Positions 55,655-61,523 of a DNA stretch of 64,000 nt are shown one piece after another. Made by a program: the position numbers and the translations under genes. Origin of the DNA: an uncultured Acidobacteriota bacterium. Lineage in GTDB: Bacteria > Acidobacteriota > Thermoanaerobaculia > Multivoradales > UBA5704. The stretch is from positions 33,217-97,216 of the forward strand of contig CAVXIV010000014.1 in assembly GCA_963761805.1 (NCBI GenBank), given 5' to 3'. Below the pieces are notes generated by a model that was not told the DNA's origin, made no database searches, and was given only the letters and a program-made list of their open reading frames with translations. Numbering within the stretch: the stretch's first letter is position 1; every line of letters begins with the position of its first letter.

Positions 55655-55966
55655 TCACTTCGCCGGCGCGGTGGCGGCGCCGATCTTGACCTTGACCGCT
55701 TTCTTGTCGTCCTCCGTCAGGTCGACGGACACGCGGACGCCCGGCGCGAGGGCCGAGCGCGTGGCAGCCTTTTTATCCTTCTCATATTGGGTGGCCGCGG
55801 TGAGCTCCACCATCTTTTCCTTGCCGTCCGGAGTGGTCACGACCAGGTGGTTCTCGTGCAGCATCTTGACGGTGCCGAGCAGCTTGTGGCTCTTGCCGCC
55901 GTGAGCGAAAGCCGCGCCGGTTGTCAACGCTACAGCTAGTAGGAAAATCATGATCTTGTTGCGCAT
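55655..55966 (-). CDS. small periplasmic protein, possibly CusF-like metal-binding
   Basis: Start MRNKIMIFLLAVALTTGAAFA with RBS AAGGAGA. The mature part HGGKSHKLLGTVKMLHENHLVVTTPDGKEKMVELTAATQY has an OB-fold-like beta pattern. Last gene of the copper cluster. Confidence 0.5.
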   Translation of the reverse strand: MRNKIMIFLLAVALTTGAAFAHGGKSHKLLGTVKMLHENHLVVTTPDGKEKMVELTAATQYEKDKKAATRSALAPGVRVSVDLTEDDKKAVKVKIGAATAPAK

Positions 55967-55976
55967 CGGTGTCTCC

Positions 55977-56582
55977 TTAATGTTCATGCGAGGCGTCAGA
56001 GGTGGCCTCTCCAGAGAGAAAGGCTTCCTCGGCCTGGATCTGTTCCCATTCTTCGGGCGTCTTCGGGTTGAGCGCCTCCATCCCGGCGATCTCCTCCGGT
56101 GTGATCTTCGGGAGGCGCCGGACGAGGTGCACCAGCCCCCAGGAGCCGTAGGCGGACTCGGCCGTGCCGTCGCCCCAGCCGGGCATGGCGGTGAGGCGGA
56201 TGCCGTTCTCGATGATCGCGAACAGCTCGCCGTCGGAGAGCGACTGCGTGGCCGCGAGCGTCATGTCGGGCGCGCGCGGATAGAAACGTTTTCCCAACTC
56301 CGTCCGCCCCTTGCCGTCGTTGCCGTGGCAGGAGGCGCAGTGGTCGGCCCAGTGCGCCCGCGCCTGCGCGAGCACCTCGGGCGTGAGCGGCAGCGGGTTG
56401 CGCTCGTTCCGCAGGTCGGCCGGCGTGGCCCAGCTCCGCATCGTGCGCGCGGCCCAGGCCTCCATCCGCGAAGGCTCCTCGTGGGTGCTGAAGCCGCGGC
56501 GCACCAGGCTCCAGAGCAGCAGCCCGCCCAGCAGGGCCAGGACAGCCACGGCGAGCAGCGCGAGCTTGAGCGGCCGGCGCAC
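55977..56582 (-). CDS. c-type cytochrome (class I, single heme)
   Basis: CASCHG heme-binding motif after an N-terminal TM anchor. A downstream Met (TAMPGWG) could be the sixth ligand. Confidence 0.8.
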   Translation of the reverse strand: MRRPLKLALLAVAVLALLGGLLLWSLVRRGFSTHEEPSRMEAWAARTMRSWATPADLRNERNPLPLTPEVLAQARAHWADHCASCHGNDGKGRTELGKRFYPRAPDMTLAATQSLSDGELFAIIENGIRLTAMPGWGDGTAESAYGSWGLVHLVRRLPKITPEEIAGMEALNPKTPEEWEQIQAEEAFLSGEATSDASHEH

Positions 56583-56585
56583 GGC

Positions 56586-57970
56586 TCACTTCCCTCCGGG
56601 ATGGTTCGCGCAGCCCGACGCCCGGACCACGTCGAAAGTCGTCTTGCCGTCCGCCGGCAGGACCGGTCCGGAGCGCCGCGCGGGCAGGATGGCGGGGGGC
56701 GCCACCGCCTGCCGCTGCCCCACCCGCGAGGCCACCGTCCCCGCGGGGTGCTCGTACCAGCCGGGGTCCTCGTCGTAGCTCTTCAGCCCCTCGCGGATCT
56801 TCATGATGGTGAACATGCCGCCCATGAAGATCGAGCCGAACGGCCCCTCGCCCGCTCCCATCAGCAGCGAGTTGCGCGGCGTGCCCATGTCCATCATGTC
56901 GCCCATGCCGGTCTGGCCCATCGGCATGTAGCCGGGGACCAGCTCGTTGATCTTCTCGGTCACCCCGGACTGGTCGACGCCGGTCATGATCGGCAGGTTG
57001 TGCCCCATCTGGTTCATGGTGTGGTGCACCTTGTGGCAGTGCAGCGGCCAGTCGCCGGGGTTGTCGGCGACGAACTCGACGTCGCGGGTGGTGCCCGGCG
57101 GGACGTTGATAGTCGTCTCGGGGATCCACGCCGTCTCCGGCAGCGGCCCGCCGTCGGTGCCGGTCCATGCGGAAGACGTGGCCGTGGAAGTGGATGGGGT
57201 GCGAGTCCATGCTGATGTTGGCGATGCGGATGCGCACGCGGTCGCCCAGCCGGACGAACAGCGGGTCGGTGCCGGGGAAGACGCGGCTGTTGAAGGTGAA
57301 GACGTTGAAGTCGAGCATCATCGTCGGGTCGGGGGTGGAGGTGCCCGGCTTGATGAACCACTCGTTGAGGAAGATGGCGAAGTCGCGGTCGATCCGGCGG
57401 ACCGGCTTGCGCGGGTGGAAGATCAGGAAGCCCATCATCCCCATCGATTGCTGCACCATCTCGTCGAAGTGCGGGTGGTACATCTGGGTGCCGTGCTGGC
57501 GCACCGTGAACTCGTACTTGAAGGTCTCGCCCGGCTCGATGCGCGGCTGGTTGAGGCCGGCGACGCCGTCCATGCCGTTGGGCAGCAGGACGCCGTGCCA
57601 GTGTACGGAGGTGGGCTCGGGGAGGCGGTTCTCGACGTAGATCCGCACCCGGTCCCCTTCGACCGCCTCGATGGTGGGGCCGGGCGTCTGGCCGTTGTAG
57701 CCCCAGCAGTTCACCTTGAACCCCGGCGCGAACTCGCGCACCACGGGCTCGGCGATCAGATGGAAGGTCTTATAACCGTCCTCCCAGCGCCAGGGCAGGG
57801 TGGAGCCGTTGGGGGTCACCACCGGGATGTAGCCGTTGGGTGTGGCCTGCGCGCTGCGCGGCGGCGAGCAGCGGGTTGCGCTGCAGCAGGTTGGCCGCCC
57901 CGGCGCTGAGCGCGGCCATGCCGGAAGCGAGCAGGCCGCGTCTTGAGATCATCGGTTTTTCGTCAGTCAT
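56586..57970 (-). pseudogene. multicopper oxidase (CopA/CueO-like) with Tat signal, interrupted by about two frame changes
   Basis: Tat leader MTDEKPMISRRGLLASGMAALSAGAANLL (ORF 57770..57970). The cupredoxin core is in another frame (TLPWRWEDGYKTFHL...VHWHGVLLPNGMDGVAG...HPHFDE...HPIHFHGHVFRM, ORF 55996..57822). The C-terminal copper site DWPLHCHKVHHTMNQM is in a third frame (ORF 56586..57029). Shift points are near 57840 and 57165. Confidence 0.7.
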
Positions 57971-60393: not shown

Positions 60394-60747
60394 TCAGCCG
60401 AGCGGGATGTGGTCGATGGGGAGGGCGAACAGAGGCGCTCCGGAGCCGGGCACCTCGGCCACCGCCTGCGAGACGGGTGCGATGGCGAAAGTGACGGGTG
60501 AGGCCTCGGCGACCGCCGTCATATGGCAGGCATGCTGGCACAAGGTGTCGCAGCAGCTCCCTCCGTCGTCGGGCGTCGCGGCGCCGGCGCGGACCTCGGG
60601 GCCGTTCGAGGCGGGAGCCGCCTCGTGGCAGGAAGGCTGCGCGCTCTCCCCCTCACCCTGCGAATCCCCGCAGGGATGCGGCCCCGCCAGGAGGCCGAAG
60701 CCGAAGACGGAGAGAAGCAAAAAGGCGACGAGAGATCTCTTCTGCAT
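60394..60747 (-). CDS. small secreted Cys/His-containing protein, possibly metal-binding
   Basis: Signal MQKRSLVAFLLLSVFGFGLLAG. The mature part contains HPCGD, PSCHE and SCCDTLCQHACHM. Confidence 0.45.
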   Translation of the reverse strand: MQKRSLVAFLLLSVFGFGLLAGPHPCGDSQGEGESAQPSCHEAAPASNGPEVRAGAATPDDGGSCCDTLCQHACHMTAVAEASPVTFAIAPVSQAVAEVPGSGAPLFALPIDHIPLG

Positions 60748-60869
60748 TTTCTATGGACCGGCCAAGACGCCGCCGGTCACCCGTTTTCAAGATACCACAA
60801 CCTCTCAGGAGGGGAATGGCATTTCCGAGGAGAGCCCCCGGCCGGACGCCGGGGGCTGGGGGGCAAGAT

Positions 60870-61061
60870 CTACGGGTACACGCAGCAGCCGGTCTTGGGA
60901 CAGGCGAGATTGCAGGTGCCTCCGGGCCTCGCCGTGCACTCGCTGTCCTTCTTGCAGGGCGACTCCACGCAGAACACTGAGCAGACCTCGGGGGCCGCCT
61001 GCAAAGCCGGCGCGACGCCGAGCAGTAGGGTCGGGATAAGAAGCTTCCAGATCTTCTTCAT
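60870..61061 (-). CDS. small secreted cysteine-rich peptide (63 aa, 8 Cys)
   Basis: RBS AAGGAG. MKKIWKLLIPTLLLGVAPALQA (signal), then APEVCSVFCVESPCKKDSECTARPGGTCNLACPKTGCCVYP. Confidence 0.55.
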   Translation of the reverse strand: MKKIWKLLIPTLLLGVAPALQAAPEVCSVFCVESPCKKDSECTARPGGTCNLACPKTGCCVYP

Positions 61062-61226
61062 GATGCAACTCCTTGAGGAGTCGGCGCGGCCGTAACGCCG
61101 CGCCGCGATCCAGAGTCTCCCGGCCGGGGCCGGAAGGGAGAGCCGGATGGCCCTCCTGTCCTGAATCTAAGGAAGATCCGTGCCAGTCGTGCCCCTTCAC
61201 CTATATGCAATTTTTTCAATATGAAT

Positions 61227-61523
61227 CTAGCTCATCCCGATCGACACCATCTCGCCGGTCTGGCGGTCGATGCTGACGGTGAGGAACTCCCCCAGGTAGC
61301 CCTGGCCGGGCTCGGCTCCCCGGAAGGTGACCTGCCAGACGGGGCGGCCCTGGTCCGTCGTCTTCTCCGCCTCCACGCTCCGTTCTTTGAAGGTGAGGTG
61401 CCGGCGGGCGAGCTCGATGGCGCGCTCCTTCGAGATCTCCTGCCCACCCCCTTGAGGGGCGCAGGCGGCCAGCGTCGGCAGGAGCAGAGCGGCGAGAAGG
61501 GCGGCGGTCTTGTTGATCTTCAT
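61227..61523 (-). CDS. small lipoprotein with PepSY-like fold
   Basis: RBS GGAGGT. Lipobox LAAC. ISKERAIELARRHL...EKTTDQGRPVWQVTFRG resembles PepSY domains. Confidence 0.55.
   Translation of the reverse strand: MKINKTAALLAALLLPTLAACAPQGGGQEISKERAIELARRHLTFKERSVEAEKTTDQGRPVWQVTFRGAEPGQGYLGEFLTVSIDRQTGEMVSIGMS

Follow-up and report, generated by a model that had tools for sequence, protein, structure and literature searches.

We analysed a cluster of eight genes at positions 55655 to 61523 of a 64,000-nucleotide (nt) stretch of DNA (the window; G+C content approximately 70%) from an uncultured Acidobacteriota bacterium. All eight genes lie on the minus strand and encode, in reading order, a PepSY lipoprotein, a secreted peptide with eight cysteines (8-Cys peptide), a Cys/His-rich secreted protein, a His-rich lipoprotein with a heavy-metal-binding domain (HMBD), a TolC-like outer-membrane protein (OMP), a multicopper oxidase (MCO) with a twin-arginine (Tat) export signal, a monoheme c-type cytochrome and a small secreted His-bearing protein with an oligonucleotide/oligosaccharide-binding (OB) fold (Table 1). 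The original prediction had described a copper-resistance operon of unusual composition with two disrupted core genes, and each of the eight open reading frames (ORFs) was found at the coordinates given there. The two gene overlaps that it claimed are also present in the sequence: the HMBD stop codon and the OMP start codon share an ATGA (4-nt overlap at 59388/59391), and the OMP stop and the MCO start overlap by 8 nt (57963/57970). The MCO and cytochrome c genes are spaced by 3 nt, and the OB-fold gene, depending on the start codon used, overlaps the cytochrome c gene or starts no more than 10 nt past its end. Wider gaps are found upstream, with 82 nt between the Cys/His-rich and HMBD genes, 122 nt between the 8-Cys and Cys/His-rich genes and 165 nt between the PepSY and 8-Cys genes, and for these three genes the originally predicted single transcript was not confirmed. 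The tightly coupled unit thus comprises the HMBD, OMP, MCO, cytochrome c and OB-fold genes; judging from the comparison with relatives described below, the PepSY and 8-Cys genes appear to be neighbours only, outside the conserved module. A scan for promoter and terminator consensus sequences over 55.2-61.8 kb gave nothing informative on the minus strand, and Rfam and tRNA scans returned no RNA element in the region.

Table 1 Coordinates of the copper module genes, of the neighbouring efflux operons and of the single-nucleotide insertions (positions in the window; aa, amino acids).
Feature	Position	Strand	Details
PepSY lipoprotein, lipobox LAAC	61227..61523	(-)	98 aa; ORF list and Pfam
Secreted 8-Cys peptide	60870..61061	(-)	63 aa; Sec signal and ~41 mature residues
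CopL-like Cys/His-rich secreted protein (putative)	60394..60747	(-)	117 aa
His-rich HMBD lipoprotein, lipobox LVGC	59388..60311	(-)	307 aa
TolC/OEP-family outer-membrane lipoprotein (OMP)	57963..59391	(-)	475 aa after correction
Tat-exported two-domain multicopper oxidase (MCO)	56586..57970	(-)	460 aa after correction
Monoheme c-type cytochrome, N-terminal membrane helix, CASCH haem motif	55977..56582	(-)	201 aa
Small secreted OB-fold His protein	55655..55966	(-)	103 aa from MRNK; alternative start 55987 gives 110 aa
1-nt insertion in OMP, extra C in gccgcgCctcgaa (minus-strand reading)	59129	(-)	Shift after residue ~87
1-nt insertion in MCO, in gcgcagCgcgcag context	57850..57853	(-)	Parts the Tat signal peptide from the mature MCO
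1-nt insertion in MCO (atgGacc)	57165	(-)	Directly past HPIHFHGH; parts it from the HCH...H....M motif
Convergent secreted 10-Cys peptide gene	55371..55562	(+)	63 aa; adjoins the 3' end of the module
czcCBA-like operon	54147-48520	(-)	Adjoins the copper module
OEP-MFP-RND operon	42.6-48.5 kb	(+)	Convergent with czcCBA
1-nt insertions in czcC	53141, 53266, 53494, 53583	(-)	Alignment with several relatives
1-nt insertions in czcB	51975, two at 52091-52100, 52583, 52613, 52626	(-)	Six, netting multiples of 3
1-nt insertions in plus-strand RND gene	45535, 45830, 47020, 47955	(+)	Alignment with several relatives

The OMP and MCO genes make up the core of the locus. After correction of the reading frame (see below), the MCO matched the Pfam families Cu-oxidase_3 (E 5.6e-41) and Cu-oxidase_2 (E 1.2e-29) and is a two-domain enzyme that has no middle domain; its closest solved structures are likewise two-domain MCOs (3g5w and 2zwn). 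It carries a twin-arginine signal, the four copper-ligand motifs HWHG, YHPH, HPIHFHGH and HCHKVHHTMNQM, and a Met-rich C-terminal extension, and it aligned end to end with intact homologues, of which at least 8000 were scored (best identity 94%). The OMP matched the Pfam family OEP (PF02321, E 3.7e-32) and has a plausible N-terminal lipobox (LLAGGC). Its scores against the NCBIfam models NodT (TIGR01845; 22 bits) and TolC (51.6 bits) were far below the respective cutoffs of 210 and 225 bits, and its closest solved relatives, SilC and OprM, are distant (E ~2e-4).

The accessory proteins point mostly to metal binding. In the HMBD lipoprotein, a long His/Asp/Met-rich low-complexity region is accompanied by a C-terminal match to PF19335 at residues 278-303 (CPMHP...CPKCGM; E 1.6e-14, 54 bits against a cutoff of 23.6). 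The Cys/His-rich protein upstream had no Pfam match. An alignment of its family revealed the conserved motifs GPHPC, SCH, CCxTFCQHACH and PIDHIPLA, and 10 of 12 family members matched the NCBIfam CopL_fam model and essentially nothing else, all of them under its 40-bit cutoff (best E 1.2e-4); the protein in the window scored 17.4 bits against the CopL model NF033807, also under the cutoff of 40. On the strength of these below-cutoff family matches the protein may be regarded as a distant CopL-like protein, and, as is characteristic of CopL, it is small, secreted, rich in Cys and His and encoded upstream of a copper oxidase operon. The cytochrome c matched Cytochrome_CBB3 (PF13442, E 3.4e-10) as well as Cytochrom_C. 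Among solved structures it comes closest to the monoheme ActE subunits (6lod_E, E 1.1e-10; 6f0k_E) of alternative complex III and to cytochrome c552, and the likeness to ActE hints at a link to respiratory electron transfer. As for the two outlying genes, the PepSY protein matched PF03413 with 26.1 bits (cutoff 24), and the 8-Cys peptide, which had no Pfam or NCBIfam match, belongs to a cluster of six members at 90% identity.

The last gene of the unit had been labelled CusF-like, a label that did not survive. Neither Pfam nor NCBIfam searches gave a CusF match (PF11604), there was no CusF among the top 50 Foldseek hits, and the His/Met/Met (+Trp) Cu(I) site of CusF is replaced by an invariant set of histidines. 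Across an alignment of the family, for which 129 homologues were found, His22, His27, His37 and His40 are invariant and no MxM motif is present. His22 follows an AFA signal-peptidase site, and the mature chain probably begins with this residue; we hypothesise that it may contribute to an N-terminal-His Cu(II) site. An AlphaFold2 model showed a six-stranded barrel (predicted local distance difference test, pLDDT, 82) whose Foldseek matches in the PDB were generic OB folds (E of at least 1.4e-3), and the only Pfam hit was to DUF5666 (20.9 bits against a cutoff of 27). Based on this model, the protein would share its general fold class with CusF yet not be a CusF, and it is better described as a DUF5666-like His-rich OB-fold protein. 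About one quarter of the 120 homologues listed (P0136, P0150 and P0158 among them) reach a length of approximately 150 aa and have a YHS domain (PF04945) at the C-terminus, and these fusions lend independent support to a role in metal handling. Overall, domain searches upheld the MCO and HMBD assignments and not that of CusF, so that seven of the eight gene labels hold.

To place the locus among its relatives, the corrected MCO was searched in one genome per species and the window proteins were mapped onto the 80 loci returned, those from other phyla belonging to Planctomycetota, Verrucomicrobiota and Myxococcota. A TolC-like gene was directly upstream of the MCO gene in all 37 acidobacterial loci scored and in 29 of 33 from other phyla. 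The remaining partners were more restricted: an HMBD gene adjoined the OMP gene in 20 of 34 acidobacterial loci against 5 of 32 elsewhere, a cytochrome c gene directly followed the MCO gene in 26 of 38 against 0 of 32, and the OB-fold gene after the cytochrome c gene (21/38) and a Cys/His gene detectable upstream of the HMBD gene (9 of 29 evaluable loci) were detected in Acidobacteriota and not in the other phyla. The complete six-gene order (CopL-like, HMBD, OMP, MCO, cytochrome c and a protein of ~100 aa) is intact in the related loci L003, L004, L006, L010, L014 and L025, among others, and gene calls on L003 and L001 gave the same order. By tblastn, a PepSY gene was found near the module only in L006, on the opposite strand, and in L022; the 8-Cys peptide likewise had homologues near it in two loci only, downstream in L004 (39% identity) and upstream in L025 (61% identity). 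The atypical composition claimed by the original prediction therefore dissolves, because relatives share it: the order is that of related Acidobacteriota, a cytochrome c after the MCO is the majority state among them, and a small CopL-type protein was already known to precede the copper oxidase genes of Xanthomonas copLAB, so that the Cys/His peptide is not out of place either. A search of the literature found no paper describing this extended acidobacterial module.

We also considered whether a redox partner always follows this type of MCO, and rejected this, as Planctomycetota and Chthoniobacterales carry unrelated genes at that position: a His/Cys-rich protein of 170-190 aa in the former and a protein of ~155 aa, whose family was not searched, in the latter. 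In L003 (positions 1-17380), further copper genes surround the intact module. They encode another small MCO (355 aa), two P-type ATPases and a Zip transporter, together with the copper-storage protein Csp, an RND pump and a CusF_Ec-type protein. The convergent 10-Cys gene at the 3' end of the module was found by tblastn at the same position in L004 and L014 (85% identity). In the window this gene is part of a 271-nt plus-strand repeat present in three copies that are 68-86% identical (55353-55623, 62925-63195 and 63149-63419) and that flank the copper module. Each copy encodes a Sec-signal peptide followed by a mature part with ten cysteines (CC..QC..[ND]..CD..CG.G.G.C...NSCC..C.C). At 90% identity this tiny, unannotated family falls into 11 clusters, and a set of 1.84 billion proteins contained 39 representatives at E<=1e-3. 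In its longer members, the signal peptide is joined to the Cys-rich core by an Ala/Pro-rich linker.

The two core genes of the window are both frameshifted. Three-frame translation located one switch in the OMP gene and two in the MCO gene, confirming that the three predicted shifts are real in the sequence and lie within a few bases of the positions originally noted (59125, 57840 and 57165). As it stands, the MCO gene is not one uninterrupted frame and becomes a single frame only after removal of 2 nt; with one base removed per site, the OMP and MCO genes encode proteins of full length (Table 1) and contain no internal stop codons. The closest relative locus, L004, is 89.6% identical by blastn over 5.2 kb, and in the OMP and MCO genes the sole indels that are not multiples of 3 are the 1-nt insertions of the window at 59129, 57850 and 57165; in the HMBD gene, the indels all add up to multiples of 3. 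The ratios of non-synonymous to synonymous substitution rates (dN/dS) of the corrected genes relative to L004 (OMP 0.285, MCO 0.173) were similar to those of the intact cytochrome c (0.231) and OB-fold (0.220) genes. The deposited assembly is shifted as well: a 736,183-bp NCBI/ENA contig contributes several of the window proteins, unchanged, to the protein collection, and on this source contig the MCO is called as a fragment of 143 aa.

A first possible explanation, that ribosomal or transcriptional slippage at these sites regulates or diversifies the OMP and MCO products, is extremely improbable. The one point in its favour is that all three shifts go in the same direction. The orthologues in L003, L004, L006, L010, L014 and L025 keep a single frame throughout and shift at none of the three sites, which argues that the shifts are specific to the window sequence and not programmed. 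In addition, none of the three sites contains a slippery heptamer or a homopolymer run, and like insertions occur six times in czcB and four times in czcC. Programmed frameshifting was thus effectively refuted by the intact single-frame orthologues and the lack of a slippery motif.

The latter insertions belong to a larger patch. Next to the copper module lie two RND efflux operons, and alignment of their genes with several relatives revealed approximately 14 window-specific 1-nt insertions between 45.4 and 53.6 kb (Table 1), which together with the OMP and MCO sites amount to ~17 single-base insertions from 45.4 to 59.2 kb. Over the same range, no single-base deletion was consistently supported across relatives. 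The insertions are patchy (45.5-48.0, 52.0-53.6 and 57.2-59.1 kb), and the 3.2-kb czcA gene between the patches (48520-51717) is intact. Outside this region, a Viterbi scan of the reading frame based on codon usage found no unexplained frame switch in 1-45 kb, each switch coinciding with a stop codon. The presence of two disrupted core genes is therefore a true statement about the sequence and not a property of the operon, as the neighbouring czcC, czcB and RND genes are broken in the same way. A search for methylation motifs and homopolymers at the 17 insertion sites gave a weak and unconvincing enrichment of GCGGA (5 observed versus 1.2 expected). Between a CDF-family gene (54609-55286) and czcC, a further Cys-rich secreted protein (CVDC...DCCPPSCCPCC) is encoded on the minus strand at 54283-54570. 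Its weak alignment with the CopL-like family suggests that every efflux or oxidase operon of the island may be accompanied by a CopL-type partner of its own.

We consider consensus errors of a long-read metagenome assembly the likely origin of the three OMP and MCO frameshifts, in which case the genes of the organism itself are probably intact. This is favoured by the all-insertion spectrum, by selection signatures that are like those of intact genes and by the long-read origin of the assembly, which we infer from the 736,183-bp length of a contig from a soil metagenome. Several points weigh against it. The case for errors was built on the assembled sequence; the clean czcA gene between the patches is unlike a uniform random error; and several of the inserted bases extend no homopolymer, with no motif shared among the sites. 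Moreover, no independent assembly of the same strain covering the OMP or MCO gene was found. Looked up as exact sequences, the cytochrome c, PepSY and OB-fold proteins had no gene record, the 8-Cys peptide led only to contigs of 1.3-1.5 kb that end short of the OMP and MCO genes, and the 90%-identity cluster of the MCO holds only the intact copy of L004, a copy from the Joint Genome Institute (JGI) and the 143-aa fragment of the window itself. Logan run ERR11593883 contains PepSY and 8-Cys sequence that matches the window.

An alternative explanation, to which we assign a minor but appreciable probability because the distribution is patchy, is that the insertions are real and that a metal-resistance island consisting of the two RND efflux operons and the copper-oxidase module has recently come to be unselected and is decaying into pseudogenes. 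It would fit the facts that the frameshifts stand in the deposited assembly, with the MCO called as a fragment, that every broken gene lies inside one functional island (42.6-59.4 kb) and that the clean remainder of the window suits a regional cause of a biological kind no less than a technical one. However, all of the ~17 events are +1 insertions, without any consistently supported single-base deletion and without nonsense codons or large deletions, and the dN/dS values of the broken genes equal those of their intact neighbours. Six independent insertions in the 1.3-kb czcB gene without other damage are implausible under neutral decay.

Taken together, we regard it as probable that the locus is a copper-detoxification module of the cell envelope, typical of its lineage, the Thermoanaerobaculia/Holophagales-type Acidobacteriota, and that its frameshifts are assembly consensus errors. 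The predicted role in copper resistance is reasonable and is backed by the domains, the synteny and the characterised relatives. In such a module, the MCO would oxidise periplasmic Cu(I) to Cu(II), with the Met-rich tail aiding the capture of Cu(I), and the HMBD lipoprotein and the His-bearing OB-fold protein may buffer copper or hand it over. The TolC-like channel could allow the exit of copper, or of the oxidase, across the outer membrane, the CopL-like protein could act in sensing or regulation, and the membrane-anchored cytochrome c may exchange electrons with the oxidase. It counts against this picture that the function of the module was derived from homology and context only, that guesswork underlies the roles proposed for the cytochrome c, for the OB-fold protein and for the TolC-like channel, with which no pump is encoded in the operon, and that close homologues of the MCO are named 'manganese oxidase' by JGI.

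That naming also raises the question of whether the module is intact and serves mainly another purpose, namely the oxidation of Mn(II) or Fe(II) by a MoxA-like enzyme or a respiratory oxidase branch with the cytochrome c, with the TolC-like protein secreting or anchoring the enzyme. We consider this unlikely. Besides the names of several close homologues, it is consistent with the resemblance of the cytochrome c to ActE subunits, the electron shuttles of alternative complex III, and Ridge et al. 2007 reportedly found the same OMP-MCO pairing (moxBA) in Pedomicrobium to be needed for Mn oxidation. Conversely, the accessory proteins are all copper-type metal binders (HMBD, CopL-like and a His-rich OB protein with YHS-fused relatives), the Met-rich tail of the MCO resembles that of Cu(I) oxidases, and L003 has Csp, Cu-ATPases and CusF beside the module. 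Furthermore, the corresponding units of Myxococcus xanthus (PMC3107203) and of Sinorhizobium meliloti (PMC6266702) are induced by copper. A further proposal, which we hold to be speculative and somewhat more doubtful still, is that the OMP-MCO copper module of Acidobacteriota gained two proteins that wire the oxidase to the respiratory chain, a membrane-anchored cytochrome c of the ActE kind and an OB-fold protein binding Cu(II) in a manner like a His brace. If true, electrons from Cu(I), or from Mn(II)/Fe(II), could be exchanged with the quinol/cytochrome pool, and copper detoxification would no longer depend on a supply of O2 or would even conserve energy.

Acidobacteriota rank among the most abundant bacteria of soils, and to our knowledge their metal homeostasis has hardly been studied. 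A module of six genes that recurs in acidobacterial genomes, compared at one genome per species, and that can be tied to experimentally studied OMP-MCO operons of other phyla offers a concrete, testable unit for the roles of a cytochrome c, of a His-rich OB protein and of a TolC-like channel that lacks a pump. The 14-kb patch of insertion frameshifts in a metagenome-assembled genome from long reads is also a warning that pseudogene calls in this region need to be checked against the reads.

Further features were observed in the window. Two secreted proteins of 195 and 200 aa without a Pfam match are encoded on the plus strand at 61648-62235 and 62246-62848, divergent from the PepSY gene and between the module and the tandem 10-Cys genes. 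A large plus-strand ORF (35598-38144) codes for a secreted protein whose N-terminal region is rich in Tyr and Gly and whose C-terminus has repeated modules of ~90 aa. The only RNA gene found in the window by the Rfam and tRNA scans is a minus-strand tRNA-Leu (anticodon TAA) at 1965-2048.

Several known systems resemble parts of the locus. In M. xanthus, a copper-activated promoter that depends on CorE lies upstream of MXAN_3424, which codes for an efflux protein of the outer membrane and is followed by the MCO gene cuoB (PMC3107203). As in the window, the efflux protein gene is immediately upstream of the MCO gene, and the M. xanthus unit is co-transcribed and copper-induced; the MCO of the window retrieved Myxococcota loci with this pairing at ~64% identity. 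In contrast to M. xanthus, there is no CorE-type sigma factor near the module, which adds the CopL-like, HMBD, cytochrome c and OB-fold proteins. [quoted passage not shown] The operon is like that of the window in its four parts, an outer-membrane protein and an MCO being joined by two small proteins, one for one-electron redox transfer and one for metal binding, a likeness of parts irrespective of orthology. The two small proteins stand in positions that match those in the window, which likewise speaks against an unusual composition; the window has a membrane-anchored cytochrome c in place of the cupredoxin and an OB-fold His protein in place of the classical chaperone.

A third counterpart is moxCBA of Pedomicrobium. 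Ridge et al. 2007 reportedly described moxBA as a family of paired TolC-like and MCO genes in Pedomicrobium and rhizobia, with Mn(II) oxidation and laccase activity as the phenotype, and the family is not known to come with genes of the HMBD, CopL-like, cytochrome c or OB-fold kind. The JGI label 'manganese oxidase' probably derives from the moxBA work. In Nitrosomonas europaea, ncgA encodes an MCO and ncgB and ncgC encode cytochromes. Similar to the window, a two-domain MCO gene is followed by c-type cytochrome genes in the ncgABC-nirK cluster. However, this cluster (PMC10781756) serves tolerance to nitrite and NO and is without OMP or copper-binding accessory genes, and the Cys motif of the type-1 copper site is in domain 1 in 3g5w and in domain 2 in the MCO of the window.

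Xanthomonas copLAB resembles the window in that a small CopL-type protein rich in Cys and His is encoded upstream of a periplasmic MCO, in what is an envelope copper defence. In contrast to copABCD/pcoABCD of Pseudomonas and Escherichia coli, the MCO of the window has two domains rather than three and its partner is a TolC-like protein rather than a CopB/PcoB beta-barrel; none of the eight proteins of the locus matched the CopB/PcoB, CopC or CopD families in Pfam. Like CusCFBA of E. coli, the locus combines, in a copper context, an outer-membrane factor of the TolC kind with a small beta-barrel protein of the periplasm. Unlike CusCBA, it contains no RND transporter or membrane-fusion protein (MFP) within 55655-61523, the RND operons being separate at 42.6-54.1 kb. 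Compared with these systems, the core of the locus appears to be a widespread pair of a TolC-like OMP and a Tat-exported two-domain MCO, as in MXAN_3424-cuoB, S. meliloti Omp-CueO and Pedomicrobium moxBA, and the module as a whole can be read as this known OMP-MCO core joined by an acidobacterial accessory set.

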